64,000 nt of DNA from Desulfovibrio sp. (lineage in GTDB: Bacteria > Desulfobacterota > Desulfovibrionia > Desulfovibrionales > Desulfovibrionaceae), in assembly GCF_014803725.1 (NCBI RefSeq), contig NZ_JAAVBE010000019.1, positions 151,455 to 215,454 on the forward strand. The letters run 5' to 3'. Numbering within the stretch: position 1 is the stretch's first letter; each line of letters begins with the position of its first letter. The notes under the pieces were generated by a model. That model was not told the DNA's origin. It made no database searches and was given only the letters and a program-made list of their open reading frames with translations. Position numbers and translations under genes: made by a program. Below are positions 18,140 to 42,500 of this stretch, one piece after another.

Positions 18140-18140
18140 C

Positions 18141-18797: not shown

Positions 18798-18801
18798 CAC
18801 C

Positions 18802-21464: not shown

Positions 21465-21492
21465 TGACCACCGAGCAAAGAGAGAACCCCAG

Positions 21493-23172: not shown

Positions 23173-23261
23173 AGCCCACGCTGCCGTGGTGGGGCTCTGC
23201 CCTTCGCGGGGCCTTGAGTGACGCGAACACGATGGCGCCAAGCGACCAGGATGGAAAATAC

Positions 23262-24446: not shown

Positions 24447-24490
24447 TTACTTACTGAGGCTTGTGCCTTCTAACTCATGTGGGGAGATGA

Positions 24491-26566
24491 ATGGGACGTC
24501 TGTTGCTTTATACCGATCTGGGCCCCTCACGGGCATGGCTTTTCGCAGCCCTTCTTGCCAACCGGGAACGGCTTGCCGCCCGTGGTATGGTCTTTGCGCC
24601 CTTCGACAACGCGTATAACGATCTCATCCCCTCTCATCGCCATCTCTGGCCCTATTTCCCTCAGGATACGTTCAGCGCCCTGCAGGAGCAGCATTTCACC
24701 ACCATTGCGGAAGAACTCGGGAAAAACAAGGACGTGCTGTGCCTTATCCCGACCTTTTCGGAGACAGCCCATGCGAAAGCCTGGGAGGCGCTGAAGGAAC
24801 GCGTCGATTTTTCGCAGCATGAAGTGAAGGCGTTGACCATCGTGGGGCGCCCTTCACTTCTTCTTGAATACCATTGGCGTGAGTGGAAGGGCTCGTATTT
24901 CGCAGGGCTCGAAGAATATTATAAGGACATGGTTTCCCTGTGCGGTCAGCTCCCTGACCTGCTCACCGGCATGGAGAGCCGTTTTGGCGCCGCGGGCCAC
25001 CGCCTTGTGGCGGATACGTCGGCGCCCACGGAGGCCGTGGCCAATCTCCCGCTCCTGGATGTGGTCGCCGATTTCCTCGGGCATGCCCCGCTTGAGGCCC
25101 CCTTGGGGACTCCATATTCGTCGCTCTTCCTCCATTCGCATGCGGCGAGGCGCCTTGCCTGGGTTCCCAGTGTCGCCTATAACGCATGGCCGCCTATCGA
25201 TGATGCCAAGCTCATGGCGTCACTTCAGGCCTTGGACGCCGGACGCGCCAACGATGTCATGACCCCGGAGGATGTCAAGGCCATGTACCTGGAGCAGTGC
25301 GGGCCAGCAACGACTCGCCTCGAAACAATGCTTGCGCTGCCGCAAGGCTCGCTCGGCATTCCCCCCTGGTTTTCCGAAACCTCTGTTGCAGACAGGTTCG
25401 CGACGCCGGACGCGGCCAGCATAAGAGCCTTCGCCCGCGAGCTTGAGCCGGAAACGCGGCGTGCGCTGCTTGCCAGGCTGCATAACGACGAAGTCCTCCT
25501 CAACGAGGATCAGCGGGCTCTCTACACCGTGCTGAGCGAGGATGCGCCTGCGGAATTTCGCCAGGTGGGCGAACCGGAGGAACCTGCCCTCCTCACGGTA
25601 TTGACCATGGCCTATAACCAGGAAAAATATATCGCGCAATGCATGGATAGCGTTCTGGAGCAAAAAACGGAATTTCCCGTCCAGCATATCGTTCTCGACC
25701 ACTGTTCAGAGGACGCTACCCCGGCGATCATTGCCGAGTACGCGGCAAAGCACCCTTCTATCCGCCCCGTCTTGCTGGCAAAGCACATTCCCTACGAAAA
25801 CACGTGGGGCCTGCTTTCACGTTGCCGGACAAAATACGCTGCGCTGTGCGACGGCGATGACTACTTTACAGAGCCGACCAAGCTCCAGAAACAGGTGGAC
25901 TTCCTCGAGGAGAACCCCGATTGCGCCCTCTGTTTTCATCCCGTGCTGGCGGTTTTTGAGGACAAGAAGTATCCCCCCTTTGTTCATCCGCCGCAGCATA
26001 TGCTCCCGCGGGGCCTCCGCAAGAAGTATTATCTGGCCGACATGCTCAACGGCAACCTCATCCAGACCAACTCCGTGGTCTACCGCTGGCGTTTCCGCGA
26101 GGGGCTCCCGGACTGGTTCCGCCCCGACCTTTGTCCGGGCGATTGGTACTGGCACCTCCTTCATGCGGAGACCGGCAAGATCGGCTTCATTCCGGAAATC
26201 ATGTCCGTCTACAGACGCCATTCTGCCTCCTACTATGCCGATTCCTTCATTTCCCATGTGAATTTGCGCCGCCAGCACGGTATGGAGGAGTTGGAGACCT
26301 ATGCGGCCATGAACGCGCACTTCAAGAACAGGTATTTTCGCGCCTTTTCCACCTTGGCCAATGGCGTCTTCGCAGACTTTCTTGAAATTCAGGCCAGGGA
26401 CGGCACCTCGAACCTTCTGGACGAGGCCAGCAAAAAATATCCTGAGTTCACGCTCAACTTTTTGAAAAACCTGAAAAAACTGAAAGCGGAATCCAGATCT
26501 CCCCAGCCTGGGGGCCCGACGGGCACAGAAGCGCCCTTTGGCGGTATCGGCAAAACTCCTCTGTAA
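24491..26566 (+). CDS. Glycosyltransferase family 2 with an N-terminal degenerate sulfotransferase-like domain
   Basis: C-terminal MAYNQEKYI, DHCSED, CDGDDY and GDW motifs; N-terminal ALLANRERLAARGMVFAP. Confidence 0.8.
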   Translation: MGRLLLYTDLGPSRAWLFAALLANRERLAARGMVFAPFDNAYNDLIPSHRHLWPYFPQDTFSALQEQHFTTIAEELGKNKDVLCLIPTFSETAHAKAWEALKERVDFSQHEVKALTIVGRPSLLLEYHWREWKGSYFAGLEEYYKDMVSLCGQLPDLLTGMESRFGAAGHRLVADTSAPTEAVANLPLLDVVADFLGHAPLEAPLGTPYSSLFLHSHAARRLAWVPSVAYNAWPPIDDAKLMASLQALDAGRANDVMTPEDVKAMYLEQCGPATTRLETMLALPQGSLGIPPWFSETSVADRFATPDAASIRAFARELEPETRRALLARLHNDEVLLNEDQRALYTVLSEDAPAEFRQVGEPEEPALLTVLTMAYNQEKYIAQCMDSVLEQKTEFPVQHIVLDHCSEDATPAIIAEYAAKHPSIRPVLLAKHIPYENTWGLLSRCRTKYAALCDGDDYFTEPTKLQKQVDFLEENPDCALCFHPVLAVFEDKKYPPFVHPPQHMLPRGLRKKYYLADMLNGNLIQTNSVVYRWRFREGLPDWFRPDLCPGDWYWHLLHAETGKIGFIPEIMSVYRRHSASYYADSFISHVNLRRQHGMEELETYAAMNAHFKNRYFRAFSTLANGVFADFLEIQARDGTSNLLDEASKKYPEFTLNFLKNLKKLKAESRSPQPGGPTGTEAPFGGIGKTPL

Positions 26567-26580
26567 AGAATCTTCCACCC

Positions 26581-27720
26581 ATGGACACCATTGATTTTCT
26601 TGTCCTCGCTGCGCACGGCACCGGAATCCATGCCTTCCACACCTATGCGAACATGCTGCCCGGCATCAGTTGTCTTTCGCATGGCATCAGCGAGAAGGCG
26701 ATTAGGGAATTCCTCCGAAACCCAGGACACACCGCCAAGGGGCTCATCCTCGATACCCCGGCCCTGGACGAGGGCTTCCTGGACGCGATCCTCGCACGCT
26801 GCAGCCCGCAATGCACGCTGGTCGTCCTGAGCCGCGACCCTCTGGAGCGCCTCAAAAGCGTCGTCAACACTCACGTTCTTTGGTGGGCTGAAGCAACAGC
26901 GGGAGTCTTCGACCGCCCAGGGCACGCGACCAAGCTCTATGGGTGCGCCGATGTGAAAACCATGACGGAAACACTGCTCGACGCGCCAAACATGAACACG
27001 AGCTGGAAACTCCTGCCCCTGGTGGCGCCCCGAATGCACAACTTCCTTGTTTTCGACATCCGGGAGCTTTACCCTGAAAATGCGGAAAGAAGCCTGCTTT
27101 CTCTCCTCGCCCTGTTGGAAAAGGGAAAGCTCCCCCAAGGGAGCATCCCCGGTTTTTCCATACCGCGATCGTTGGTGTACAGGAAAGAAAACAGCTTTGT
27201 CCGTTTTATAAAAAAACTTCGTCTGCGTCATGGCGATGCCTGGTTCGCCATTAAGCCATGTCCATATGAATTTTGCTCTTCCTACGGGCTGGAGCAGGAC
27301 ATCGTCCTGCTCCGCGACCCGGCTGACTATGGCTTTTCACTGGGCGACTACGAGGGCGAGCTGGCATTTGTGCTTTGTGAGTACGACCACCACTCGCGCA
27401 CCAATGCGATGAATATTGTTCGTCAAAGGCTGGAACAGGAGCCGGAACTTCTTCTTGACTATTGTGCGGATATTTCACGCAGGCATGCGTTCGCCCAGAA
27501 ACTGGCAGACTGCGTGGCCCTGACCAATGATGGCCTGCTGGACTTCGCCCGCTCGGATCGGCAGTTCGGCTCCGCGCTCCGACAGTTCTTCCAGAATCAT
27601 GAGCATTGCCTTACAGCCTGCGGCCGAGACGCTTCCTCTTCTTGGCAAGCCACGCAAGACTTTTCCACAGCGCTGGCCTCGATCCTTGCCGCTGGGGCGG
27701 GCGCCACGCCCGGGGACTGA
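26581..27720 (+). CDS. Sulfotransferase-fold protein (DUF2972-like); candidate phosphoramidate transferase
   Basis: N-terminal LAAHGTG loop; VVLSRDPLERLKSVVN resembles the 3'-phosphate-binding motif of sulfotransferases. Confidence 0.5.
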   Translation: MDTIDFLVLAAHGTGIHAFHTYANMLPGISCLSHGISEKAIREFLRNPGHTAKGLILDTPALDEGFLDAILARCSPQCTLVVLSRDPLERLKSVVNTHVLWWAEATAGVFDRPGHATKLYGCADVKTMTETLLDAPNMNTSWKLLPLVAPRMHNFLVFDIRELYPENAERSLLSLLALLEKGKLPQGSIPGFSIPRSLVYRKENSFVRFIKKLRLRHGDAWFAIKPCPYEFCSSYGLEQDIVLLRDPADYGFSLGDYEGELAFVLCEYDHHSRTNAMNIVRQRLEQEPELLLDYCADISRRHAFAQKLADCVALTNDGLLDFARSDRQFGSALRQFFQNHEHCLTACGRDASSSWQATQDFSTALASILAAGAGATPGD

Positions 27721-27724
27721 CACG

Positions 27725-29359
27725 ATGCAGGATACACCTATATATGGGCTCCCAGATCTGCAGGTGGCGCTCTCGTCACTTCCTCCTGACGTTTTCGTCG
27801 TAGCCTTCTACATCTCCACCACAAGCGTATCACAGGACATCTGGATGAACCCCCTGGCGGCGCGTATGCGCGCCGCAGGCTACCTGTCCCTGGCGATTTG
27901 CACCCCGAAAAATGTGGACAAGATCCGGCTTGAGGCCGATCTTACCGCGGTGCTCGCGGAAACCGATCTCTCCCCACTCACCAGAATCAATGCCATCATC
28001 ATATCCGATATGGATACACGTAATGCGATATACCCGCTAACCGCAAAGATACTTGGCTGTATACACGCGTTCAGCGTGGCGAATGATGACCTGCCCTGGT
28101 CCACGGCCGAATCGGCAGGCCTGGACGGCTGGATGGTGCCCTTTCCTCTGAGCGCAGACACAAAGGCCGGCATCAGCAAGCTCTGGTCCGGCTTCACCAC
28201 TCCGGCAGGGACACGGCGTAGTGGCAACTTTCATATCATTCCCGTGGGCTATCCCGGTCTCGCCGTTCTCGCTGAGCGCCTGCGCACCACCAGGTCCGTC
28301 CCGGACGCCATCGTCTATGCGCCCGTGGGCCGCAGCGCCTATCCGGATTCCGGGGGCAACCGGCTCAGGCGCTACGGCGTCCGCACGGTGAGGACGCTTC
28401 TCAGCAGCTTCCCCGACTACCGCGTGATTTTCCGCCCTTACAAACTTGACCTGGATTCCCCCGAGGTCCGGGAGATATGCGCGGCTTTTGCCGGCGAGCC
28501 CCGCTTTCTCCTTGACACGGCCCGAGAACGGCATTTTTCCTTCGCCCGCGGTGCCCTGCTTGTGACTGACCTGTCCCATATCGCCTGGTCTTTCGCATTT
28601 TCAACCCTCCGTCCGGCGATCTATTTCCAGCCTTGGGCACTGCCTCCGCACCCGTCGGCCACGAGTTCGCCCAAAGGGCCGACGAACTCACGCGGGCGAG
28701 GGGAGAACACGCGGCAAGCCTTCGTGCCATGGGAATGCGGGTTCCGGGCCACTTCCTTTACCGGCTTGACAAGTGCTGCCAAGGAGTGCCTGGAAAAAAG
28801 GGACTTTTGGGAAAAAGCTCTCCGTGACCGGCGTGAAAGGCTGACAATGCCTTTTGATACCGCCCTTGACGATATTGTTGGCTTCATCCGCGACTTCGTG
28901 GAGGACAAGCCACGCCCGGACTGGCTCACCATCCAGCGTGACGGCGCCGTTGTCCAAAGCGAAGCGGAACTTGTCCAGCGCATGCTGCAGCAGCCCAGGG
29001 AGGCGCTCCCCAACATTTCCGCCAGCGCGCTCATGTGCCACAGTCCGCTCAGTCCGTTGCTGACGGCCCTTGCGTTGCACTCCGGCCATGAACTCATCCC
29101 CGAGGCAGGGTTCTATTTCCGTGAGGCAATTGAACGCGCCGCCAGCCACCTGCTGAGGAAGGAGTTTTCCTGTCGCTCGTATAAAGATGTGGATGTGCAT
29201 GACATCCGGACACTCTATTCCCTGGCTATCCTGGAAATGTTAAAAAAGAAGGATGCAGACGGACTCGCACTGGCGCAAGCCCTCCTGGAGCGCCTGGATG
29301 CTTTTTGCCAGAGGGACGCCCCGGATGTCCAAACGGCGTTCCTCCTGCCGGGGGGATAA
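27725..29359 (+). CDS. CDP-polyol phosphotransferase-like (TagF/GT-B) protein
   Basis: GYPG, IVYAP, VIFRPY and LLVTDLSHIAWSFAFSTLRPAIYF match the TagF-type motif order. Confidence 0.55.
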   Translation: MQDTPIYGLPDLQVALSSLPPDVFVVAFYISTTSVSQDIWMNPLAARMRAAGYLSLAICTPKNVDKIRLEADLTAVLAETDLSPLTRINAIIISDMDTRNAIYPLTAKILGCIHAFSVANDDLPWSTAESAGLDGWMVPFPLSADTKAGISKLWSGFTTPAGTRRSGNFHIIPVGYPGLAVLAERLRTTRSVPDAIVYAPVGRSAYPDSGGNRLRRYGVRTVRTLLSSFPDYRVIFRPYKLDLDSPEVREICAAFAGEPRFLLDTARERHFSFARGALLVTDLSHIAWSFAFSTLRPAIYFQPWALPPHPSATSSPKGPTNSRGRGENTRQAFVPWECGFRATSFTGLTSAAKECLEKRDFWEKALRDRRERLTMPFDTALDDIVGFIRDFVEDKPRPDWLTIQRDGAVVQSEAELVQRMLQQPREALPNISASALMCHSPLSPLLTALALHSGHELIPEAGFYFREAIERAASHLLRKEFSCRSYKDVDVHDIRTLYSLAILEMLKKKDADGLALAQALLERLDAFCQRDAPDVQTAFLLPGG

Positions 29360-29493
29360 AAGAAACCGCATGACTCTGCTGGGGGCATGCCCCGCGGGCT
29401 GTCATGGGCTTTGGCACACCCCCCCTGGCTGGAGCGCCAGCGGCCCGCGGCCCGGTGCATCGCCCTAGCATCCGCCACGCCAGGGAGAAATAT

Positions 29494-29522
29494 TTGCAAA
29501 TTATTCCACAGCATGCTATGAA
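29494..29522 (+). promoter_or_regulatory. Putative extended -10 sigma70 promoter for the phosphoramidate operon
   Basis: TTGCAA-N17-TATGAA with TG at -15/-14, in an AT-rich gap. Confidence 0.5.
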
Positions 29523-29660
29523 TAAAAAATATCGGCAGCCCTTACGCGCGCTTCCCCCTCCAGAGCAATGCCTGCAAATCCCTCAATACCGGAGCAAATC
29601 CGGCAAAGCCCACTGAAGAGGCCCCTCGGAAAACGCCGTGCAAAGGACGTCCCCCCCGAG

Positions 29661-32039
29661 ATGAGCGCCACCCCCTTCACCTTTTCCTCCAAGGCCGACA
29701 CTCTGGCCGCGCTCTCCCGCTGGCCGGAACTCAACATCCCCACGGTGTTCGCCTTCACCGTGGCGGAGTGGCGCGCCGATGCCGGGGCGGTGCATGCCGG
29801 GGCCGTGGCCGCGCTTGGGACTGCCCCGGGCCTGCGCGCGGCCGTGCGCTCCTCCTGCCGGCGGGAGGATTCGGCGGCCTGTTCCGGCGCCGGCGCCTTC
29901 CTTTCGCGCCTTGATGTGCCGCTGGACGACGACGACGCCTTTGTCGATGCGGTCGAACAGGTCATCGCCTCCTATGGCGGGGCAGCCCCGGACGACCAGG
30001 TGCTCGTGCAGCCCATGATCCGCGAGCCGGCCGTCACCGGGGTCATCATGACCCGCGCCCTTGCCGACGGCGCGCCCTGGTATGTCATCAACTATGACGA
30101 CGAATCCGGCAAGACCGACACCGTCACCGGCGGCACCCATGTGGGCAAGACGGTCTATGTCTACCGCGAGGCACGGGAAGGCGATTTCGACTCCCCGCGG
30201 CTCGCCGCCTTCGTGGGGCTGGCGCGCCGGCTTGAGGCCCTGTGCGGTACGGACGCGCTGGATATCGAGTTTTGCCTCGATGCGGAAAATACCCTTCATC
30301 TGCTTCAGGTGCGGCCCATCTGCGCCGGGAGCCAATGGCCGGACTCCATCCCCGCGGCGCGCATCGGGCGCGTGGCCGAATTCGTGGCCGACCGCACCGG
30401 CCCGTGCCCCGGGCTTTTCGGGCAGCGCTCCATCCTCGGGGTGATGCCGGACTGGAACCCGGCGGAAATGATCGGCATCCTCCCCCGGCCGCTGGCCGCC
30501 TCCCTCTACCGCAACCTTATCACGAGCCGCGTCTGGGCCAAGGCGCGGGAGCGCATGGGCTATCGCACGCTGCCGCCCACCGAGCTCATGCCGCTCATCT
30601 TCGGGCGCCCCTACATCGATGTGCGCGCGAGCTTCAATTCCTTCCTGCCGGCGGGGCTCGACGCCGGCACATGCGAAATCCTCGTCAACGCGTGGCTGGA
30701 ACGACTGGAGGCCAACCCGCAGTTTCATGACAAGATCGAGTTTGAGATTGCCCAGACCGCTCTCGACTTCAACTTCGACGCCGCGCTGGACGCGCGCTAT
30801 CCCGGGCTGCTCTCGGCGCGCCGCCGGGAGGAGTTTCGCGCCGCCCTCACCCGCCTGACGGCAGCCTGCCTCGATCTTTCCCCCGCGGGCACTCTGGCCG
30901 GCGCGATGGACGCCGTGGCCGAACTGCGCGGGCGCCAGGCGGCGCGGCCCTTCGTCAGCGCCGCCGAGCCCGGGCGCCTCGAAGACCTCCCGCCCCTCTT
31001 GGCCGAATGCCGCAAGTACGGCACCCTCCCCTTCTCCATCCTGGCGCGGCATGCCTTCATCGCCGAAAGCCTGTTGCGCTCGGCCGTGACGGCCGGCGCG
31101 CTTGCGCCTGAGCGCGTGCAGACGTTCAAGGCCACGGTGCGCACCATCTCCGGCGAGCTCTCGCGCGAATTTCAGGATGTCTGCGAAGGCCGGCGCGACG
31201 CCGCGGCCTTCATGCGCAAATACGGGCACCTGCGGCCCGGCAGCTATGACATCCTTTCGCCCCGCTACCTTGACCGGCCGCAAATCTTCGGGGAGGGCGG
31301 CCGCCCACAACGCCCGAGACCCGGCGCGCCCTTTGCGCTCACCCCGGCCGAACGCGCGAGCCTCGAGACCCTGCTGCGCGGAGCCGGGCTCGGCGTCAGC
31401 CCCGAAGAACTGCTGGAATATGCGCGCCGGGCCATCGCCGGCCGCGAGCACGCCAAGTTCATCTTCAGCCGCAATCTTTCGGACGCGCTGGAGATCATCG
31501 CCTTTTTCGGCGAGCGCGCCGGTTTTGACCGCGAAGCGGCCTCCTTTTTCGAAATCCAGCCTCTGCTCGACTGGACGGTCAGCGCGCAACCCGAAACGCC
31601 CCAGGAGCATTTCGGCCGCCTCGTCGCGGCCAACCGCGAGCTTCTGGCCCGCGCCTCCGGGCTCAAGCTCGGCTACCTTATCCGCTCGGTGCGCGACGTG
31701 TATGTGGCCCCGCAGCACCGCGCCGCGCCCAATTTCGTGGGCACGGGCGAAGCGCTGGCCCCGGTGGCGCGCCTTTTTGCCGGCAGCCCCTGCGATGTGG
31801 ACCTCACGGGCAAGATCGTCTGCATCGAAAATGCCGACCCGGGCTTTGACTGGATCTTCACCCGCCATATCGCGGGCCTCGTGACGCGCTTCGGCGGGGC
31901 CAATTCGCATATGGCCATCCGCTGCGCGGAATACGGGCTGCCGGCGGCCATCGGCACGGGCGAAAGGCTGTTCGACATGGCACAGGCGGCGGAGACGCTC
32001 TATATCAAGCCGGCGGCGGCCATCCTGGAGGCGCGCTGA
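29661..32039 (+). CDS. PEP-synthase-like L-glutamine kinase (Cj1418 homolog)
   Basis: N-terminal ATP-grasp (VRSS, VLVQPM, DIEF, LLQVRP), central MPDWNPAEMIG, C-terminal phospho-His domain (DPGFDWIF, GGANSHMAIRCAEYGLPAAIG). Confidence 0.85.
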   Translation: MSATPFTFSSKADTLAALSRWPELNIPTVFAFTVAEWRADAGAVHAGAVAALGTAPGLRAAVRSSCRREDSAACSGAGAFLSRLDVPLDDDDAFVDAVEQVIASYGGAAPDDQVLVQPMIREPAVTGVIMTRALADGAPWYVINYDDESGKTDTVTGGTHVGKTVYVYREAREGDFDSPRLAAFVGLARRLEALCGTDALDIEFCLDAENTLHLLQVRPICAGSQWPDSIPAARIGRVAEFVADRTGPCPGLFGQRSILGVMPDWNPAEMIGILPRPLAASLYRNLITSRVWAKARERMGYRTLPPTELMPLIFGRPYIDVRASFNSFLPAGLDAGTCEILVNAWLERLEANPQFHDKIEFEIAQTALDFNFDAALDARYPGLLSARRREEFRAALTRLTAACLDLSPAGTLAGAMDAVAELRGRQAARPFVSAAEPGRLEDLPPLLAECRKYGTLPFSILARHAFIAESLLRSAVTAGALAPERVQTFKATVRTISGELSREFQDVCEGRRDAAAFMRKYGHLRPGSYDILSPRYLDRPQIFGEGGRPQRPRPGAPFALTPAERASLETLLRGAGLGVSPEELLEYARRAIAGREHAKFIFSRNLSDALEIIAFFGERAGFDREAASFFEIQPLLDWTVSAQPETPQEHFGRLVAANRELLARASGLKLGYLIRSVRDVYVAPQHRAAPNFVGTGEALAPVARLFAGSPCDVDLTGKIVCIENADPGFDWIFTRHIAGLVTRFGGANSHMAIRCAEYGLPAAIGTGERLFDMAQAAETLYIKPAAAILEAR

Positions 32040-32683
32040 TGCTCGGCATCACCATGCGCGTCATGCGCCACACCTATTCCGGGGGCGCCGTGGAGGAACG
32101 CGACGCCCTTGCGCGGGACTGGCCCCGCTTTCTCCGCCAGGTGTTTCCGCAGGAGCCGGTCCTCTATCTCCCCAATATGGGCGCGGAAATCACGGGCTTC
32201 GCCGCGGGCGCCGGGCTCACCGGGCTCATTTTTTCGGGCGGGGAGGACTGGGGCCTCGTGCCGGAACGCGACGCCACGGAGGCCGCGCTCTTCGCCTGGG
32301 CGCGGGAGGCCGGGCTGCCGGTTTTCGGCGTGTGCCGGGGCGCGCAGGCCATCAACCTGCTCATGGGCGGCCGGCTCACAGGCTGCGACGGGCATGTGGC
32401 TGTGCGGCATGCGGTGGAGCTGGCGCGCCCCGTTGCCGGGAGCCCGCGCCATGAGGTCAATTCCTTCCATGCTCAGGGCATACTCCGGGGGGGGCTGGCC
32501 CCGGGCCTCGAAGCCCTCGCCCTGGCCCCGGACGGCACAGTGGAGGCCTTCACCAGCGCGGACGGCCGCATCGCCGCCGTCATGTGGCACCCCGAACGCG
32601 AAGCGCAGCCGGCGCCTCTGGACACGGCGCTTCTGCGCGCATGCCTGGGCCGAGGTTTCGGCGAGACAGCAGGAGAACGATGA
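32039..32683 (+). CDS. Class I glutamine amidotransferase-like gamma-glutamyl-CDP-amidate hydrolase (Cj1417 homolog)
   Basis: GVCRGAQ nucleophile elbow, VNSFH and WHPE motifs; coupled to both neighbours. Confidence 0.82.
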
Positions 32684-33465
32684 CCATGAACGACGGTACG
32701 GCGGCCGTCATCCTCGCCGCGGGCCGCGGCTCGCGGATGCGGGAGCTCACGGCCGAGCGGCCCAAGTGCCTTGTGGAGCTCGCCGGCCGCCCCCTCCTCC
32801 ACTGGCAGCTCGACGCCCTGCGCGGCGCCGGCATCCGGCGCATCCTCGTGGTGCGCGGCTATGCCGCCCAGTGCCTCGCCGGCGACTTCGCCACCACGGA
32901 GAATCCGCGCTGGGCCGAGACCAACATGGTCGCCTCCCTGCTGTGCGCGGGCGCCTTCGCGCGCGAGTTCTTCGCCAGGGGGGGCAAGCGGCTCGTCGTC
33001 TCCTATTCCGACATCGTGTACCACCCCGACCATGTTCGCAGGCTGCTCACCGCCACGGAAGACATGGCCATCACCTACGATACGGAATGGGAAGCCCTCT
33101 GGAAGCTGCGTTTTGAAGACGTGCTCTCGGATGCCGAGACCTTCCGGCAGGAGGGGGGCATCCTGCGCGAGATCGGCGGCAGGGCGGCCACGCTCGAAGA
33201 GATCCACGGGCAGTACATGGGCCTGCTCTCCTTCTCGCGCGCCGGCTGGGAGCGCCTGGAGGCAGCATGCGCCGCCCTTGGCCCCGAGGCCGTGGACAAG
33301 CTGGACATGACGGGCCTGCTGCGCCTTTTGCTCGCGCAAAATATCGCCATCGAGGCCGTGCCCGTGGCCGGCCGCTGGTGCGAGGCCGACAGCGGCACGG
33401 ACCTCAAGACCTATGAAGAGGCGCTCGCACGGGGCGCCTGGTCGCATGACTGGCGGCAGTGGTAG
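32680..33465 (+). CDS. CTP:phosphoglutamine cytidylyltransferase-like (Cj1416 homolog, LicC family)
   Basis: [20 protein letters not shown] and GQYMGL motifs. Confidence 0.82.
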
Positions 33466-33509
33466 CTGCGGCCACACTGATACTCGAATAACCGCAACGC
33501 TAGGCGGCG

Positions 33510-33548
33510 TTCTCCCTGTTTCGGCGGAGGCGCCGGAACACGGGAGAA
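33510..33548 (+). promoter_or_regulatory. Long hairpin sequestering the RBS of the methyltransferase
   Basis: TTCTCCC-TGTTTCGGCG-(GAGG)-CGCCGGAACA-C-GGGAGAA, 3 nt before ATG 33552. Confidence 0.55.
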
Positions 33549-33551
33549 GCT

Positions 33552-34304
33552 ATGACGGTTGAATGGGATTACACGGCACTGGCGGATGCGTACCTGAAAC
33601 GCCCCGACTATTCCCCGGCCGCGCTCACGGCGCTGTTCCGTATCGCCTGCCTCAAGCCGGGCGACAAGGTGTGCGACATCGGCGCCGGCGTGGCTCACCT
33701 CACCCTGCCGCTGGCGGCCTATGGCTGCGAGGTGGATGCGGTGGAGCCCAATGACGCCATGCGGGCCAACGGCATGAAACGTACGGCCGACCTCGCCACC
33801 GTCCACTGGAGCAAGGGTACCGGCGAGGCCACGGGGCGCCCTGCCGGCGTTTATGATTTCGTGACCTTCGGCTCCTCGTTCAATGTCTGCGACCGGCAGG
33901 CGGCGCTGCGCGAAAGCCACCGCCTGCTCAAGCCGGGCGGGTATTTCGCCTGCCTCTGGAACCACAGGGACCTGGACGACCCGGTGCAAAAAGCCATCGA
34001 GACCATCATCCGCGAGAGCATCCCGGGCTATGGCTACGGCACCCGGCGCGAGGACCAGTCGGCGGTCATCACCGCCTCCGGGCTTTTTGAGGATCTGGTG
34101 AGGGTGGAAGGCGCCACCGTGCAGACGCAGAGCGTCGACGATGCCATCGAGGCCTGGCGCTCGCACGCCACGCTCCAGCGCCAGGCGGGCGAAGCCTTCG
34201 GCCCCATCGTGGACAAGCTGGCCGCCCATCTGCGCTCGCTGGGCACCGATACCCTCCACATCCCTTACACCACACGCGCCTGGATCGCGCGCCGCAAGGA
34301 CTGA
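33552..34304 (+). CDS. SAM-dependent methyltransferase (Cj1419-like, phosphoramidate O-methylation candidate)
   Basis: EWDYTALADAYLKRPDYS N-terminus, DIGAG and VEPNDAM motifs; embedded in the phosphoramidate cluster. Confidence 0.75.
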   Translation: MTVEWDYTALADAYLKRPDYSPAALTALFRIACLKPGDKVCDIGAGVAHLTLPLAAYGCEVDAVEPNDAMRANGMKRTADLATVHWSKGTGEATGRPAGVYDFVTFGSSFNVCDRQAALRESHRLLKPGGYFACLWNHRDLDDPVQKAIETIIRESIPGYGYGTRREDQSAVITASGLFEDLVRVEGATVQTQSVDDAIEAWRSHATLQRQAGEAFGPIVDKLAAHLRSLGTDTLHIPYTTRAWIARRKD

Positions 34305-34305
34305 A

Positions 34306-34824
34306 ATGCAAACTTCCCGGAAAAATGGCCGCGTGTTCTGGATCACCGGCCTTTCCGGCGCCGGCAAGACCACCCTGGCCCGGGCGCTCCAGCAGGCGCT
34401 CCCGGGCTCGCTCCGGCTGGACGGCGACGAACTGCGCGAAGCCCTGGGCGCCAGCGGCCAGGGCTTCGACGCGGAGAGCCGCCGGCGCCTGGCCCTGAGC
34501 TATGCGCGGCTGGCCGGCCTTCTGGCGCGGCAGGGGGCCACGGTCATCGTGGCCACCATTTCGCTCTTCCACGAGCTCCACGCCTGGAACCGCGCCAACC
34601 TGCCCGGCTATGTGGAGATATTCCTGGACGTGCCGGAGGCTGTGCGCCGCGGGCGCGACCCCAAGGGCCTGTATGCCGGCAATGTGCGCCATATGGCCGG
34701 AGGCGAGGTCAAGGCGGAACTGCCGCTTGCCCCGCACCTGCGCCTCACGGGCGGCGAAAGCCTTGAGGACGCGCTGGCGCTCGTGCTGGAGCTTGCGGCA
34801 GAGCCCGCGGCGCGCAACGACTGA
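34306..34824 (+). CDS. APS-kinase-like cytidine diphosphoramidate 3'-kinase (Cj1415 homolog)
   Basis: WITGLSGAGKTT P-loop, LDGDELR and RDPKGLY motifs; context favours Cj1415 over CysC. Confidence 0.8.
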   Translation: MQTSRKNGRVFWITGLSGAGKTTLARALQQALPGSLRLDGDELREALGASGQGFDAESRRRLALSYARLAGLLARQGATVIVATISLFHELHAWNRANLPGYVEIFLDVPEAVRRGRDPKGLYAGNVRHMAGGEVKAELPLAPHLRLTGGESLEDALALVLELAAEPAARND

Positions 34825-34983
34825 CGCTTCCGCCCCCTGGCGCCCGGCCTCTCCCGTTCGCCGCGCTCCGCCCCGGCTTGCCAAGGCCGCGCCTCTCTGC
34901 CACTATGCGGGCATTGGGGAGCCCCGGTCGCCGGCGCCCGGCATGCGTCCGCAGGCCCTCCCCCCTTGCTGAACGGAGCGGCC

Positions 34984-36213
34984 ATGGCCTTTCGATTCTC
35001 CCCCCTCTTCGGCGGCACCATGGTGGTCGCCGGCACGGCCATCGGCGCGGGCATGCTCGGCCTGCCCATGATCTCCGCGGGCATGTGGTACTCGTGGTCC
35101 ATGGTGGTGCTTTTCGGCTCCTGGTTTTTCATGTTCCGCTCAAGCCAGGCCCTGCTTGAGGTCAACCTGCACTTCCAGCCGGGCGACAGTTTCCACACCC
35201 TCGTGCGCGAGCTGCTGGGCCCCGCGTGGAGCGCCGTCAACGGCCTTTCCGTGGCCTTCGTGCTCTATATCCTCGTCTACGCCTATGTGAGCGGCGGCGG
35301 CTCGGTGGTGCAGCACGCGCTCACGCCCGTGCTGGGGAGCGAGCCCCCGCGCCTGCTCACGAGCCTCATCTTCTCGCTGCTGCTGGCGGCCTGCATCTGG
35401 TGGAGCTCCCGCGCGGTGGACCGCTTCTCCATCGTGCTCATGGGCGGCATGGTCTTGGCGCTGCTCTTTTCCATGAGCGGCATGTTCCGGCACCTCCGGC
35501 TCGACGTGCTGCTGGACGCAGGCGGCGCGGGGGGCGAGGCCATCTTCATCTGGGGCGCGCTCTCCACCTATCTCACCTCCTTCTGCTTCCACGCGTCGGT
35601 GCCGAGCCTCGTCAAGTATCTCGGCAAGGACGGCCGCGGCATCAACGCCTGCCTCAGGTACGGCACCATCATCGCGCTGGCCTGCTATTTCGCGTGGATC
35701 ACCGCCTCGGACGGCGTCATCCCGCGCGAGGGCTTCAAGGCGGTCATCGCACAGGGCGGCAACGTGGGCGACCTGCTCGCCGCCGCCGGCCACAACCTCG
35801 GTAGCGGCCTCGTGCTCAGCCTGCTGGAGGCCTTTTCGCTGCTCGCCGTGGCGACATCCTTCCTGGGCGCCGGGCTCGGGCTCTTCGACTACATGGCCGA
35901 CCTCTGCAATTTTGACGACAGCCGCCTCGGCCGCACCAAGACCCTGCTCGTGACCTTCGTGCCGCCCATGGCCTGCGGCCTCCTGTGGCCGGACGGCTTT
36001 CTCGCGGCCATCGGCTGGGCCGGCCTCGCGGCTTCGGTGTGGTCGGTCATCGTGCCGGCGCTGCTGCTGCGCGCGTGCCGGCGGCGCTTCAGCCCGGGCG
36101 GATACACTGCGCCGGGCGGTGCGCTGCTCACGCCGCTGCTGCTCTGTTACGGCATCCTCGTGGCCGTGTGCCATACGCTCTTTGTGTTTCAGCTCCTGCC
36201 CATGTATGATTGA
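34984..36213 (+). CDS. Aromatic amino acid permease (Mtr/TnaB/TyrP family)
   Basis: GTAIGAGMLGLP, SFCFHASVPSL and VATSFLG motifs. Confidence 0.9.
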   Translation: MAFRFSPLFGGTMVVAGTAIGAGMLGLPMISAGMWYSWSMVVLFGSWFFMFRSSQALLEVNLHFQPGDSFHTLVRELLGPAWSAVNGLSVAFVLYILVYAYVSGGGSVVQHALTPVLGSEPPRLLTSLIFSLLLAACIWWSSRAVDRFSIVLMGGMVLALLFSMSGMFRHLRLDVLLDAGGAGGEAIFIWGALSTYLTSFCFHASVPSLVKYLGKDGRGINACLRYGTIIALACYFAWITASDGVIPREGFKAVIAQGGNVGDLLAAAGHNLGSGLVLSLLEAFSLLAVATSFLGAGLGLFDYMADLCNFDDSRLGRTKTLLVTFVPPMACGLLWPDGFLAAIGWAGLAASVWSVIVPALLLRACRRRFSPGGYTAPGGALLTPLLLCYGILVAVCHTLFVFQLLPMYD

Positions 36214-36256
36214 CCCGCGGGGCGGAAGAGCTCCGCAGCCGCAAGCGGGGAAGGAC

Positions 36257-37102
36257 ATGGACGACCCTCACGCGCCCCACATAGCCCGATCTTCAGCCTC
36301 TCCCGGCGCGGCCCCGCCCCGCCCCGGCGACGTGGCGACCGCCCGCTTCGTGCTGGCGGCGCAGTTGCGCCTCCTGGAGCGCGCCCTCGCCGCGTGGCCG
36401 CGCCGGGAAGCGGCCCTGCTGGACGTGAACTGCGGCACGGGCGCGGTGCTGCCCTTTCTCTGGGGCTGCGGCTTTGAGGTGGACGCGGTGGAGGCCGACC
36501 CGGCCTCCCGGGCGCGCGCGCAAACACGCTGCCCCGCGGCCACGGTCATGGCCGGCAGGGACGACGGCCTGCCCGTGGAGGACGACGCCTACGACTGGGT
36601 GCTCCTCCACCTGCGGGAGCCAAGGCGCCTCGCCGCCGCCCTTGCCGAAGCGCGGCGCGTGGCCCGGCGCGGCTTTGCCGTCACTTTCTGGAACCGCCAC
36701 TCCCTCGCCGGGCTCTGCGCGCGCGTGGCGCACACGCGCCTCCCCGGGCACGTCACCACCTGGTGGGAGGTGCGCGGGGCCCTGCGCCGCATGGAGGGCG
36801 CCCCCGCGCCCGGCAATACGGCGAGCCTGGGCACGCTGGCCGGGCCTGTGAACACCTGGCGCGCGAAAAGCCCCCTCGCGCCGGGGAGCCGCCTCGTCAC
36901 GGCGCTCCCGGTGGGGGCGTGGACGGTGTTCCGCTGTACGCTCGGGCCCGCGGGCGGCGTCACTCCGCTGGCCCTGCGTCTCGGCGCCCGTTTCGGGCGC
37001 GGCATGGATGAGCGCCTTTCCGCGCCGGAGCCGGTGCTGGAGTGCGGGCGCAAACCGCTCACCTCCTGCGCCCCGGGCGGGAGGGACGAAGGAGGGGCAT
37101 GA
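36257..37102 (+). CDS. Methyltransferase-fold protein
   Basis: LLDVNCGTG and DDAYDWV motifs; AAGGA RBS. Confidence 0.65.
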   Translation: MDDPHAPHIARSSASPGAAPPRPGDVATARFVLAAQLRLLERALAAWPRREAALLDVNCGTGAVLPFLWGCGFEVDAVEADPASRARAQTRCPAATVMAGRDDGLPVEDDAYDWVLLHLREPRRLAAALAEARRVARRGFAVTFWNRHSLAGLCARVAHTRLPGHVTTWWEVRGALRRMEGAPAPGNTASLGTLAGPVNTWRAKSPLAPGSRLVTALPVGAWTVFRCTLGPAGGVTPLALRLGARFGRGMDERLSAPEPVLECGRKPLTSCAPGGRDEGGA

Positions 37103-38259: not shown

Positions 38260-39426
38260 TCAGGCGCCGCGCTCTTTCTTCCACGCGGCATACGCGCGCA
38301 TGACCCCGGCCAAGTGCCGGGGCACCACCACGGCCTCGCTGAAGTGCGCGAGCACATTGCGCCGCGCCATGCGGGCCTGCGGCGCGGGTTCGCCGTCGCG
38401 CGGGCGCGCCTCAAGCGCCGCCAGCACGGCGGCCGGGGCATCGTTGGCCGGAAATTCCAGCATGTTGACGCCGGGGCGCAAAAAATTTGCCGTTTCCGGC
38501 CGCGCCATGAGCAGGGCCTCGCAGCTCATGGCCTCCAGCATGGCCCGCTCGGCCGCGTCGCCCTGCCCGGGGCAGACCACGAGCGAGGACGCGGCCAGAA
38601 GATCCCGATAGCGCCCGAAGGGCAGCGAAGCATGCGCCGCAAAGCGCGGTCGGCAGCCGTCCGCCCAGGTGTTCGCCGCGGCTTCCAGCGCCTCCCGAAG
38701 GCGGCTGTTTTCCGTCAGCATGACCGCATGGCACGCGGGGAGCGACCGCAGCACGGCGTGCGCGAGGCGCAGCAAGGTGGCAAGCGGCGCCCCGTCGAGG
38801 CCGGTGGCGTCGAGGGTGAGCAGTGGGCCGTCCGGCGGGGCTTCGTGCCCCTCGAACCACGGGCGCGCGGCCGCGCGCGAAAAAAGCTCCGTATCCACGC
38901 AGGGTTCGGTGAGGCTTAGGGCCTCCCGTAGGGGGCTCGGGAAGAGGCGCCGCTGCCGCTCGCTCATGGCGAAGCAGAGGTCGGCCTGCAAAAAGAGCGC
39001 GCTTTGCAGGATGGTCCAGGCCCGGCGCGCCTCCCCGGGCAGGAGGGCGAAGTTTTTGAGCCCGGTTTCCGCATAGCCCGCGAGAAAGGCACCGGGAAAG
39101 GCCTGCGGCGCGAACAGGGCCGCGCCCCCGGCCAGCGTGGCGAAGATGATGTCCGGCGTGCCCCAGGACTCGCGCAGGGAGGTGAGGGAACGCAGCCCCC
39201 AGGAACCGCGCCTGACGGTCTCCTCCCACAGGGCGGGCACTTCCGGGGCCACCTCGCCGAAGAGCGGGGCGTTTTTCAGGCGCACCCGCCGCACACCGGG
39301 GAGCGCGAAGTCCTTGCGCTGCCGGTTGGAGGCGAAGAGCACCTCGTTTTCCGGCGCGGCCGCAAGCTCGCGCGCCAGCGGCCCGAGATCGCCGGGGAAA
39401 TAGTTGCTGATGAAGAGGATGCGCAT
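38260..39426 (-). CDS. Glycosyltransferase family 4, adhesin-linked type (alternative GTG start at 39510)
   Basis: MRILFISNYFPG N-terminus; GT-B features; RAMLEAMSCEALL. Confidence 0.75.
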   Translation of the reverse strand: MRILFISNYFPGDLGPLARELAAAPENEVLFASNRQRKDFALPGVRRVRLKNAPLFGEVAPEVPALWEETVRRGSWGLRSLTSLRESWGTPDIIFATLAGGAALFAPQAFPGAFLAGYAETGLKNFALLPGEARRAWTILQSALFLQADLCFAMSERQRRLFPSPLREALSLTEPCVDTELFSRAAARPWFEGHEAPPDGPLLTLDATGLDGAPLATLLRLAHAVLRSLPACHAVMLTENSRLREALEAAANTWADGCRPRFAAHASLPFGRYRDLLAASSLVVCPGQGDAAERAMLEAMSCEALLMARPETANFLRPGVNMLEFPANDAPAAVLAALEARPRDGEPAPQARMARRNVLAHFSEAVVVPRHLAGVMRAYAAWKKERGA

Positions 39427-39437
39427 GGGGATATGAG

Positions 39438-39473
39438 GGCGGCGCCCGGAAGGGCGCCGCCGTTTTTTTTTTT
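39438..39473 (+). terminator. GC hairpin plus T11 tract, oriented antisense to both flanking genes
   Basis: GGCGGCGCCC-GGAA-GGGCGCCGCC-G-T11. Confidence 0.6.
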
Positions 39474-39512
39474 GAGGTGCCGGGGCGCGGTGCCCCGTGT
39501 GCCTGTACACTC

Positions 39513-42500
39513 TTAGCCGTTGCTCAACACGATATTCTGCGCGGCCTGCTCGCCGGCATCAGTGCCGCCGGTGCTGTCCACGGTCAGCGTGGTTTCGAGT
39601 GAGACGCCATCCCCATTTTCATAGGTAGTGGTTTTGTCGTTGCCCTCGACCTTGTGCCACTGGTCGCCCAGGATGAGCTTGTTGCCTTCCACGCTGAAGC
39701 CATACTTGGCGGCAAGGGCGTCCATGTTCTGCAGGCTCGTATCCACGCCCCTGATCATCACCTCCACGTCATTGACCATGGGCATCTGGTCGTCATGGCC
39801 CTCGCCATTCCTGTTCTGCCAGTTGCCTATCATGTCCGCCAACGTGTGCTGGGTCCCGGTGCCGTCCGAGAGCAGGAAGTCGATGCCCGTTCCACCGTCC
39901 ACGAGGTAGTCATCGGCGTCATAAACGATGAGGTCGTTGCCGCTTCCGCCGAAGAGGCTATCCTTGCCCGCGCCGCCGTCCAGGAAGTCGTTGCCCGAGC
40001 CGCCGAAGAGGAGGTCATCCCCCGCGCCGCCAATGAGCGTGTCGTCGCCGGAACCGCCGATGAGGATGTCATCGTCATTGCCGCCGTCCAGGTGGTCATT
40101 GCCGCCCGCGCCGTGGAGAAGGTCGCTGCCGGAAAGGCCGTAGAGGGTGTCGTCACCGCCCGCGCCCTTTTCGAGATCCTGCTCGGCAGCCTCGAGGTTC
40201 TTCGCAATAGTATGCAGCTCGTCAGCCGTCTTTCCCGCCAGCTCCTCAGCGTTGGCAGTGAGGTCCTTGTCCCGGCTGACTTCAAGAAGGTCGCGCAGTT
40301 GTCCCTTCGCCGCATCGGTGCCGTCCCCGTCGCCCATCATGACATCGGTGCCGTTGGTGCCGAAGAGCAGGTCATTGCCCGCGAGACCGTGTACATTGCT
40401 GTGGGTGTCCTCCGCCTTGTTCGTCTGCATGTTGGCGGCGATTTCATCGGCATGCGTCTTTACCTCGTCAATGCCGTAGCCATTGGCCGCAAGCGCGCCG
40501 ATGAAGGCGGCAGCATCGCCGAAGAGGATATTGTCCGCGGCGTCTCCCTTCGGGGTGCTTTTGCCGTTCTTGTCATAGGCCGCGTCGATGAAGACATACT
40601 TGTCGCCAACCTTATGCGGGTCAAGATTGGTCTCAAGGCGGAGATGGACGCCGTCCTTTTCATATTCAAACGTCTTGCCGCCGTCCTTTGTCGTCCAGCG
40701 GTCGTCAACGGTCATGATGTGGCTCTTGCCGTCAATGACCACGCCGTACGACGCCAGGGACGCGAGGCTCGTGATGCCCAGGTTTTCCACATGGGTGGTA
40801 TGCAGGGAAGTGATGAGCACCTCCACCCCGGCCACCATCGGCTTGTCTTTGCCGCCCTCAATCATTTCCGCAAGGGTTGGTGCGTCCTTGCCGCCCGCCA
40901 GCAGGATGTCGATACCGTCGCCGCCGTGGATGATCAGGTCGTTCTGGTCGTAAACGATGATGTCATTGCCGGAGCCGCCGAACAGCATGTCCTTGTCCGT
41001 ATAGCCGTCCACCGGCTTGCCGTTGCCGTCCAGGTAGTCGTCACCGCCGCCGCCGAAGAGGATGTCGTTGCCGACGCCGCCATAAAGCGCGTCATTACCC
41101 TGCTCGCCCTTCTCCATTGCGTTCATAAGCGCATTCAGCTCTTCGGGCGACTTATCGAGCAACGCGTCCCGAACCTGCTCAAAGGCAGCCTTGTTGGCGC
41201 CGGTGACGCCCTTGTTCTGGCCCAGGCTGTTCACGCCGTTCCCGATATTCTCCTTCCCGGTTCCGATACCTTCCTTGAAGGCCACGTCGAGACCAAGGCC
41301 ATCGAGCAGCTCCCCGAGGGGACTGTCCTCCCCGTTGTCCAGGCCGTCGCCCAGCATCAGGTCGTTGCCGCCCTTGCCGTACATGAGGTCATTGCGTTCA
41401 TGGCCGCGCAGCAGGTCATACGCATTGTCAAACAGCACGGTGTTGGAATCGGTTCCCCAGTCGGTTTCGTAATAGCCGGTTTCCACATTGTGGAAGCGCT
41501 CAAGGTCGCTCGGGTTGGACATGTCGATGTTTTTAACCAGACTCGCCGTGTCGCCGTCCGCATCCTTGACCTTGAATGTCACATTGAAGTCGGCCTTGGT
41601 GTTCTCACCCTTCTTCGCAAACTCGTAGAACTGCTTGATGGTCCAGGTGCCGTCCTGATTGAGGCTGCCTTCAAACAGGGTGACGGTCTGCCCGTGCAGA
41701 TCAAATGTCGCCGTGACGGTGGTTGGGGTAGATGTCAGCTGTGCCACATATTCCCCCGCATCAGGGCCGGTGAGGATGTTGAATTCCTTCAGCTCGGCTT
41801 GGCTCCAGTCCCAGGTGATGGCATTCTCTGTCGCTTGGCCGTCCGCCCCGAAATCAACGTCAACCTGGCCCTTGTATTCCTGCGCGGTGTGGGTGAAGCC
41901 CAGCGACTTGATGCCGAAGGCGGAGGCCGTATGGTGCACAGAATCGGGGGCAGCGGAAATGATCACCTTGGTGTAGCCGTCCGGCACGGCGATATGTATC
42001 TTGCCAGAGGCATCGAGATCCTTGGAGCTTATCTCCACCATCTTGACCAGGCTGTCATCATTGTTGTTCTTGGGCGTGAGATAGAAGCAGATGAGCGCCT
42101 TTTCGCCTGCTCCGAGACCACCGAACTCGATATTCGTACCGTAATAAATGGTGCCTTCGGTGTTTTCAAAGACCAGCGCTTCGGAGTGCTTCGCATCCGG
42201 CATGCTCAAGCCGTTTTGATCGTAATTTCCTCCCCACGTCCCGACGGTCAGGCCATTCTCCCCCATCGCCAGTATCTTGTCGGCTTTGGACGCACCCCCG
42301 TTATATGCATTATTGATATCCTTTGAGTAATCCACCGTGTACCCGTTCTCGGTAAAGGTGTATTCCACAAAGGTGGGAATGATCTGGATGCCGCCATAGG
42401 TGCCCATATAGGCGTTGGCAGTCGGGAGATAACTGGCATAATTCCCGGGGTGCTCGGGATCAAATATGGGATGATTGCCAGAGCTTCCCATAACATACTT

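Follow-up and report, generated by a model that had tools for sequence, protein, structure and literature searches.

A predicted phosphoramidate donor operon with adjacent candidate transferases at the end of a glycan-assembly locus in Desulfovibrio

We analyzed a 64,000-nt stretch of the genome of Desulfovibrio sp. (assembly GCF_014803725.1, contig NZ_JAAVBE010000019.1, positions 151,455-215,454, forward strand; the whole stretch is called the window below) with respect to a five-gene operon, g1 to g5, that resembles the genes for O-methyl phosphoramidate (MeOPN) synthesis in Campylobacter jejuni. In C. jejuni MeOPN serves as a phage receptor and affects the interaction with the host. The operon belongs to the known MeOPN system, with a divergent transferase complement, and it probably serves, like its C. 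jejuni counterpart, to make an activated phosphoramidate donor, from which adjacent proteins would then decorate a glycan. We have high confidence in the donor pathway as such, while we moderately favor, as a more guarded expectation, that MeOPN is displayed on a surface glycan. The basis of the assignment is homology, reciprocal best matches, catalytic motifs, gene order and co-occurrence across many taxa, from which every enzymatic activity, the methylation step, the acceptor and the display in this organism are predicted. In the proposed pathway g1 would N-phosphorylate L-glutamine at the expense of ATP, g3 would convert L-glutamine phosphate and CTP to cytidine diphosphate (CDP)-L-glutamine, g2 would hydrolyze CDP-L-glutamine to glutamate and cytidine diphosphoramidate, and g5 would phosphorylate the 3'-OH, resulting in 3'-phospho-CDP-amidate, a donor resembling 3'-phosphoadenosine 5'-phosphosulfate (PAPS). 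The O-methyl group would be supplied by g4 at an unspecified stage, and one or both of two proteins encoded immediately upstream, w_379 and w_545, would attach the (methyl)phosphoramidate to a hydroxyl group of a sugar. The acceptor glycan would come from the neighboring glycosyltransferase locus and is probably lipopolysaccharide (LPS) or another surface polysaccharide.

The listing of open reading frames (ORFs) and independent public gene calls on an identical contig concur on five plus-strand genes at 29661-34824, and all five ORFs are intact. An earlier reading made from the sequence alone (the sequence-only reading) had described five contiguous genes that mostly overlap or abut, and both points agree with the junctions: g1 and g2 have 1 nt in common (TGATG), g2 and g3 overlap by 4 nt (ATGA), g3 and g4 are separated by 86 nt containing the Shine-Dalgarno sequence GGGAGAA, and g4 and g5 are separated by 1 nt. 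An alternative ATG start for g1 at 29568 receives no support from the N-termini of the homologues. The GC content at third codon positions (GC3) is 0.81-0.87 in g1-g5, which fits genuine coding sequence. Pfam returned the same domain types as the sequence-only reading had named, i.e. a PEP-utilizers mobile domain and a PPDK_N fragment in g1, Peptidase_C26/class I GATase in g2, NTP_transf_3 in g3, Methyltransf_11/25 in g4 and APS_kinase in g5.

As reference we used the MeOPN locus of C. jejuni strain GP013, which was itself found in a motif scan where the invariant kinase motif MPDWNPAE was back-translated with A/T-biased wobble positions and run against a species-representative genome collection. 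In this locus an MeOPN-transferase-family gene is followed in the same direction by two methyltransferase genes (267 and 253 aa) and the kinase gene (779 aa), and downstream of the kinase by genes for an amidotransferase (200 aa), a nucleotidyltransferase (253 aa) and an APS-kinase-like protein (170 aa; APS, adenosine 5'-phosphosulfate), which is the cj1422/1421-1420-1419-1418-1417-1416-1415 arrangement. Among the NCBIfam models the kinase scores 1173 bits with NF004508, the 3'-kinase 290.6 bits with NF004041, and the partial upstream gene 407 bits with NF058596, “O-methyl phosphoramidate transferase”. For the functions of Cj1415-1418 and Cj1421/1422 we follow PMC11800397 and PMC3907429.

All five window proteins are homologous over the full length to one C. 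jejuni MeOPN protein each, with identities of 31-45% in BLASTP, and when the C. jejuni proteins were searched against the window in the reverse direction, the unique best matches were exactly g1-g5. The reciprocal BLAST and hidden Markov model (HMM) comparison with Cj1415-Cj1420, which the sequence-only reading had proposed as a check, thus ended in reciprocal best matches for all five genes. Compared via GP013, the cj1415c-cj1422c genes of the NCTC 11168 capsule locus and the window operon comprise the same five enzyme families in the same core order of kinase, hydrolase, cytidylyltransferase and 3'-kinase. The only difference in order is the methyltransferase gene, which in the window is inserted between the cytidylyltransferase and 3'-kinase genes and in C. 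jejuni is located upstream of the kinase gene. The catalytic histidine and the amidotransferase motifs are kept, a candidate transferase with remote homology to the C. jejuni transferase family is encoded just upstream, and both loci are set among glycan genes. The claim that this gene set is the MeOPN enzyme set of C. jejuni is supported by full-length homology, reciprocal matches and core order. The pathway had also been called complete, which is correct for the five-gene set but not for the transferase, since this step falls outside the five genes with its candidates encoded upstream (Table 1). Further differences are that the window host is a high-GC gut bacterium of the Desulfovibrionaceae, unlike C. 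jejuni, that the transferase homologue of the window is a very divergent core of approximately 380 aa, and that the window encodes an extra TagF-like protein. Sequence searches of the PDB returned no solved homologue of Cj1415-1418 closer than generic family members.

Table 1 The operon, the candidate transferases and other features of the window.
Feature	Position	Strand	Length	Description or source
g1	29661-32039	+	792 aa	L-glutamine kinase homologue (Cj1418 family)
g2	32039-32683	+	214 aa	gamma-glutamyl-CDP-amidate hydrolase homologue (Cj1417-like class I amidotransferase/Peptidase_C26)
g3	32680-33465, or start 32686	+	261 aa or 259 aa	CTP:phosphoglutamine cytidylyltransferase homologue (Cj1416-like)
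g4	33552-34304	+	250 aa	S-adenosylmethionine (SAM)-dependent methyltransferase, Cj1419-like, also with similarity to Cj1420
g5	34306-34824	+	172 aa	cytidine diphosphoramidate 3'-kinase homologue (Cj1415-like, APS-kinase fold)
w_379	26581-27720	+	379 aa	candidate phosphoramidate transferase, remote homologue of the MeOPN transferase catalytic core (Cj1421/1422, CJJ81176_1420 family)
w_545	27722-29359	+	545 aa	putative TagF-like (CDP-alcohol-type) phosphotransferase, predicted GT-B fold, second candidate transferase
Intergenic region before g1	29360-29660	+	301 nt	possible promoter; AT-rich patch
Glycan-assembly locus	12794-26566	.		Pfam
G8 tract in g2	32487-32494			homopolymer list of the window
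G7 tract in g3	32978-32984			homopolymer list of the window
C7 tract, 4 nt upstream of the g1 ATG	29651-29657			homopolymer list of the window
C7 tract	29419-29425			homopolymer list of the window

The g1 protein is 32% identical to Cj1418 over 784 aa (E 3e-141) and passes the curated equivalog model of the Cj1418 family, NF004508, with 847.2 bits against a cut-off of 501 for residues 4-783. The sequence GGANSHMAIR is identical in g1 and the C. jejuni kinase, and His750 of g1, which aligns with His737 of C. jejuni, is the predicted phosphohistidine; His737 of Cj1418 is reportedly the phosphocarrier histidine, positioned in a C-terminal swivel domain. Phosphoenolpyruvate (PEP) synthase was tried as an identity for g1 and rejected, since its highest score with a PEP-synthase model in NCBIfam was 37.6 bits, where the cut-off is 883, and Pfam did not find the C-terminal domain that binds PEP/pyruvate (PEP-utilizers_C) in g1. 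These results bear on the reading that the five are unrelated housekeeping genes for a PEP synthase or pyruvate phosphate dikinase (PPDK), a GMP-synthase-like amidotransferase, a sugar nucleotidyltransferase, UbiE and CysC, as the source names of the homologues and the generic Pfam domains would have it. None of the PEP-synthase equivalogs, with cut-offs of 598-1063, gives g1 a higher score than the one mentioned, and both the synteny across bacteria and archaea and the translational coupling argue for one pathway. By these scores, synteny and coupling the housekeeping reading is effectively refuted and keeps a negligible probability.

The g2 protein is 31% identical to Cj1417 over 197 aa (E 2e-24) and keeps the motifs GxCRGAQ, with the nucleophile cysteine, and WH(P/I)ERE, with the histidine and glutamate. 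In kinase-bearing loci of other genomes (see below) a hydrolase gene of this type is usually located directly downstream of the kinase gene. The g3 protein is a full-length match to Cj1416, with 34% identity over 248 of 253 aa (E 7e-53). Nucleotidyltransferases from the PDB match only the N-terminal 57 aa or so of g3, while the Cj1416 homology also spans the C-terminal half; NCBIfam holds no curated model for the Cj1416 family. The best conserved of the five is g4, with 45% identity over 251 aa to the Cj1419-like protein (E 4e-70) and 33% to the Cj1420-like protein (E 2e-42), and in the reverse search a methyltransferase of this type was present in a single copy. A second SAM methyltransferase gene is found at 36254-37102 (within the ORF 36119-37102), two genes downstream of the operon and beyond a Trp/Tyr-family permease gene (34966-36213); its similarity to the Cj1420-like protein is weak (26% over 131 aa, E 9e-6).

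The last protein of the operon, g5, is 35% identical to Cj1415 over 165 aa (E 4e-32) and passes the Cj1415-family model NF004041 with 130.9 bits against a cut-off of 127. An identity as the APS kinase CysC was rejected for g5, which fails the apsK equivalog TIGR00455 (97.5 bits against 138.7) and is devoid of the ISP(Y/F)R motif. Where canonical APS kinases have LISPYR, g5 has TISLFHE, and the pattern T-I-S-L/M-F is common to g5, Cj1415 and approximately 40 other cluster-linked kinases, as opposed to ISP(Y/F) in genuine APS kinases.

The distribution of the module was assessed from approximately 120 kinase-bearing 8-kb loci (L005-L124), which all come from the one AT-biased motif scan described above and where the tile size cuts many of the clusters. 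The scan revealed the kinase motif in at least 120 species, and the matches listed include Campylobacter, Helicobacter, Arcobacteraceae, Pelagibacter (SAR11), Prochlorococcus, SAR86, Shewanella, Vibrio, Legionella (Legionella tunisiensis), Leptospira (Leptospira alexanderi), Fusobacterium, Faecalibacterium, Bacteroidales, candidate phyla radiation (CPR) bacteria, Woese- and Pacearchaeota (DPANN archaea) and Methanosarcinales. Hydrolase and cytidylyltransferase genes are each present in 89 of the approximately 120 loci listed, a 3'-kinase gene in 42 and a methyltransferase gene of the g4 type in 38. A protein search with the kinase gave 2785 clusters at E <= 1e-5, an unknown share of which may be other PEP-utilizing enzymes; the best 120 of the 2785 are 49-97% identical and come from several genera of Desulfovibrionaceae and from Lentisphaerae, Fibrobacterota and Alphaproteobacteria. 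The module extends well beyond the sulfate reducers, and the rarity implied by the sequence-only reading was overstated.

Two cultured relatives, Desulfovibrio sulfodismutans (CP045504.1, locus L125, operon at approximately 2,957,063-2,962,316) and Nitratidesulfovibrio sp. (locus L126), carry the same five genes contiguously on one strand, with kinases that are 57% and 50% identical to g1, respectively, and with the same core order; in Nitratidesulfovibrio the methyltransferase gene follows the 3'-kinase gene, as opposed to preceding it in the window. The upstream genes differ from those of the window, since the w_379/w_545 pair is absent from both operons. Instead, the D. sulfodismutans operon is preceded by genes for two Sulfotransfer_1 proteins of approximately 560 aa and a PHP phosphoesterase (L125, 5681-9788), and the Nitratidesulfovibrio operon by a gene for a Sulfotransfer_3-like protein (L126, 8503-9909). 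These Sulfotransfer-domain neighbors could be sulfotransferase-fold phosphoramidate transferases using a PAPS-like donor, and the PHP phosphoesterase could recycle the 3',5'-bisphosphate by-product.

Turning to the candidate transferases of the window, w_379 has no match in Pfam or NCBIfam. An HMM built from the MeOPN-transferase homologues of Campylobacter and Helicobacter alone nevertheless found w_379 at E 9e-9, and alignment of the w_379 family with the Campylobacter/Helicobacter transferase family by hhalign gave a probability of 99.6% and E 1e-23 over 343 columns, covering approximately the whole of w_379. In a direct BLAST comparison w_379 and the C. jejuni transferase showed no significant similarity (E 0.13), so that the relationship is visible to profiles only. 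The w_379 family is very small (38 representatives among 1.84 billion), and two of its members make weak contact with DUF2972. The w_379 and Campylobacter transferase families have an N-terminal HG(S/T)G and the motif (L/V)xRDP(I/L)xR(L/I)K(S/T)xxN in common. As judged from these profiles and motifs, the homology of w_379 to the MeOPN transferases is remote and confined to the core.

The RDP...S part of the motif in w_379 and in the Cj1421-family core resembles the 3'-phosphate-binding motif of sulfotransferases. A PDB profile search with w_379 reached a heparan sulfate 3-O-sulfotransferase at this RDP motif with E of approximately 1. An AlphaFold2 (AF2) model of w_379, made from five sequences, is of low confidence with a predicted local distance difference test (pLDDT) value of 45, and its top nine Foldseek matches were all sulfotransferases, none of them significant (E 0.015-0.07). 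When w_379 and the Campylobacter transferases were compared with the Sulfotransfer-domain neighbors in D. sulfodismutans and Nitratidesulfovibrio by HMM and hhalign, RDP..S alone was aligned, without significance. Given the PAPS-like donor, we suggest as a hypothesis that the MeOPN transferases may be sulfotransferase-like in nature. The proposed pathway has a likeness to the PAPS pathway in that an enzyme of the APS-kinase fold adds the 3'-phosphate to a nucleoside 5'-diphospho-X donor and that the transferases are sulfotransferase-like in appearance, and it differs in that the group moved would be phosphoramidate rather than sulfate and the nucleotide would be cytidine.

The same observations could be read as a sulfation system, where g5 would be a true APS kinase that produces PAPS and the upstream transferase would act as a sulfotransferase on the glycan. 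The APS-kinase fold of g5, the first matches of the w_379 model, the Sulfotransfer_1/3 proteins preceding the operon in the two relatives and the fact that the relatives of the host are sulfate reducers, and thus APS makers, all agree with sulfation. This reading is nevertheless opposed by g5 itself, which by the scores and motifs given above belongs with Cj1415 and not with the APS kinases, and it offers no role for the glutamine kinase, hydrolase and cytidylyltransferase encoded in the same operon. Since a PAPS-like 3'-phospho-CDP-amidate explains sulfotransferase-like transferases equally well, we regard sulfation as very improbable and retain phosphoramidate transfer as the preferred function.

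The start of the second candidate, w_545, is uncertain, the public gene call being 504 aa. No Pfam match was obtained for w_545 even at E <= 5, PF04464 included. Its AF2 model has a pLDDT of 87 and the top Foldseek/PDB fold is the teichoic-acid polymerase TagF (E 2.6e-10, TM 0.43-0.54), so w_545 would resemble the TagF/TarF CDP-glycerol:poly(glycerophosphate) glycerophosphotransferases (PF04464; PDB 3L7I) in having the GT-B fold. By hhalign w_545 aligns with a Helicobacter Glyphos_transf protein encoded inside an MeOPN-type cluster (97.5%, E 5e-12), and a block LVTDxS...TLRP is common to w_545 and such Helicobacter proteins. The RxHP of the aligned Helicobacter protein reads FRPY in w_545 when the hhalign alignment is inspected by eye, which is a difference from the TagF type. 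No CDP-glycerol synthesis gene is found near w_545, and therefore phosphoramidate would be the only CDP-linked donor that is encoded locally.

In Helicobacter sp. SUG33 (L005, 4431-5875 and 44-1531) and in three further loci (L053, L058, L070) TagF-like (Glyphos_transf) proteins are also encoded, either ahead of the kinase gene or with the hydrolase gene on one side and the cytidylyltransferase gene on the other. The internal TagF-like gene of L005 is split into ORFs of 166 and 315 aa, and runs of glycine codons (GGGG in the protein) occur, which suggests poly-G phase variation as in the C. jejuni MeOPN transferases. Three tandem w_545 paralogues (533, 548 and 518 aa) separate the glycosyltransferase genes from the kinase gene in a related metagenomic contig (L001, 10001-15115), and after them come a DUF4365 protein and one of 382 aa that has no Pfam domain. 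A 3'-kinase gene is present in 2 of the 14 loci with TagF-like neighbors and in 40 of the 106 without, a weak trend that is confounded by clusters cut at the edges of the 8-kb tiles. The rare combination of TagF-like neighbors with a 3'-kinase would fit a second route using CDP-amidate directly.

Taking the two candidates together, we tentatively propose a wider reading, to which we give a rather low probability: decoration of surface glycans with P-N bonds may be widespread and largely overlooked, in hundreds of bacterial and archaeal species, and delivered by two alternative types of transferase that are both encoded in the window. The carriers would include gut Desulfovibrio, Helicobacter, SAR11, Prochlorococcus, Leptospira and DPANN archaea. 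On the first route sulfotransferase-like enzymes (the Cj1421 family, w_379 and the Sulfotransfer neighbors in Desulfovibrionaceae) would use the 3'-phospho-CDP-amidate made by a kinase of the Cj1415 type. On the second route TagF-like enzymes (w_545 and the neighbors in Helicobacter, SAR86, Vibrio and Opitutales) would use CDP-amidate as an analogue of CDP-glycerol.

The operon closes a glycan-assembly locus, and it abuts a locus encoding five glycosyltransferases and an initiating sugar transferase. This locus encodes a GT9 heptosyltransferase, a Bac_transf initiating transferase, a FabH-like protein, a short-chain dehydrogenase/reductase (SDR), a hexapeptide acyltransferase, two GT4 proteins, a deacetylase-methyltransferase, a methyltransferase and a GT2 protein, and it probably supplies the acceptor. 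The region 21097-29359 has a lower GC content and a GC3 of 0.65-0.70, compared with the operon and the rest of the window, which suggests a mosaic history with separate acquisition of the transferase and modification genes. On the other side of the operon, at 39513-44372 on the minus strand, a 1618-aa protein with RTX calcium-binding repeats and cadherin-like and Big_9 domains is encoded, which is probably a secreted adhesin; a GT4-type glycosyltransferase gene (38260-39510) adjoins it.

It is conceivable, at low probability, that the donor pathway operates as proposed but that the product is something other than MeOPN on a surface polysaccharide, for instance an unmethylated phosphoramide, a group added to lipid A, core or protein, or a small metabolite with a P-N bond. 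Unmethylated phosphoramide substituents are chemically documented on the lipooligosaccharide (LOS) of Xanthomonas campestris and the LPS of Shewanella MR-4 (PMC8042644, PMC3210612), the GT9 heptosyltransferase encoded nearby hints at LPS and its core, and even for C. jejuni both methylation and transfer have yet to be defined (PMC12409886). The limited number of loci with a g4-like methyltransferase gene within 8 kb, given above, points the same way. Set against this are the position of g4 inside the operon, immediately before g5, and its rank as the best conserved of the five proteins, and furthermore the neighbors are overwhelmingly glycan enzymes, with no nonribosomal peptide synthetase or polyketide synthase (NRPS/PKS) or other small-molecule machinery among them. 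We therefore keep MeOPN on a surface glycan as the favored product.

A number of results weigh against the MeOPN assignment. Identities of 31-45% to the C. jejuni proteins leave room for a changed substrate specificity. The best NCBIfam family for g2 is that of Cj1417 (NF045546, “gamma-glutamyl-CDP-amidate hydrolase”), but the score of 85.8 bits is far under the cut-off of 250, whereas the C. jejuni hydrolase with 330.7 bits is above it, and g5 exceeds the cut-off of its own family model by just 4 bits. The curated MeOPN-transferase models (NF058596; DUF2972) gave no match to w_379 at E <= 0.01, and the N-terminal 200 aa or so of the Campylobacter/Helicobacter transferases have no counterpart in the window. 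There is one methyltransferase of the relevant type, compared with two in C. jejuni. Genes for kps capsule export, as found in the C. jejuni setting, for wzx/wzy and for a ligase were not seen among the window genes scanned, several genes having been left unscanned. Finally, 4 of 13 Campylobacter strains with orthologues of cj1416-1418 gave no MeOPN signal (PMC3907429), which calls for caution with respect to display.

The last observation also fits an operon that is intact but silent, cryptic or phase-variable, so that no phosphoramidate is displayed. The sequence-only reading had given the operon its own promoter, which we could not confirm: the gap before g1 has an AT-rich patch, but a scan of 29200-35100 for the sigma-70 consensus gave no site. 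Read-through into the operon is possible, because the glycan genes upstream of it all have the same orientation as the operon. Furthermore, 4 of the 14 long homopolymer tracts of the window are located in the 5.2-kb operon or just before it, and it is possible that these tracts, among them those in g2, in g3 and close to the g1 start codon (Table 1), act as slipped-strand switches. Against a silent state are the five intact ORFs with their native-like codon composition and the close relatives at 66-97% identity, which retain full-length copies; the latter argues for purifying selection. We consider a silent operon about as improbable as a different end product, and continue with the view that the operon is used for glycan decoration.

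The sequence-only reading had predicted that automatic annotation would miss the pathway, and the existing names bear this out. Homologues of g1 carry source names such as “pyruvate, phosphate dikinase”, “PEP-utilizing enzyme” and “hypothetical protein”, and the models NF004508 and NF004041 are entitled “hypothetical protein” and “adenylyl-sulfate kinase”, respectively. Correction of “pyruvate phosphate dikinase” and “cysC” matters in sulfate reducers, because “cysC” in such organisms invites wrong conclusions about sulfur metabolism.

In the literature, a 2019 review describes MeOPN sugars as known from Campylobacter only (PMC6429109), and a 2022 review describes the glutamine kinase as “C. 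jejuni-specific” (PMC9561416). The searchable literature contains no paper pairing MeOPN with Desulfovibrio, in line with the sequence-only reading, which knew of no chemical demonstration in this genus, and it places the cluster outside Campylobacter in one preprint only, by inference; papers on the enzymology that are available by subscription may comment on the distribution. This preprint concerns the Borg elements of Methanoperedens (bioRxiv 10.1101/2024.11.05.622173), where genes of the Cj1418/1417/1416 type were inferred from structure and homology in a glycan-decoration region. The Borg cluster differs from the window operon in being archaeal and extrachromosomal and in having a PEP-mutase fusion and phosphonate genes, with no 3'-kinase or methyltransferase reported. 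The breadth of the module found here far exceeds its description in the open literature.

With a gut Desulfovibrio that has the full donor pathway together with candidate transferases, P-N glycan chemistry would reach into a common group of commensals or pathobionts. The prediction is testable in gut and environmental Desulfovibrionaceae, and because the cultured relatives D. sulfodismutans and Nitratidesulfovibrio (sp. HK-II) have the same operon, nuclear magnetic resonance (NMR) can test it directly. The transferase neighborhoods, with the MeOPN-transferase core, the TagF-like proteins, the sulfotransferase-domain proteins and the PHP phosphatase, provide leads on how phosphoramidate may be transferred to a sugar.

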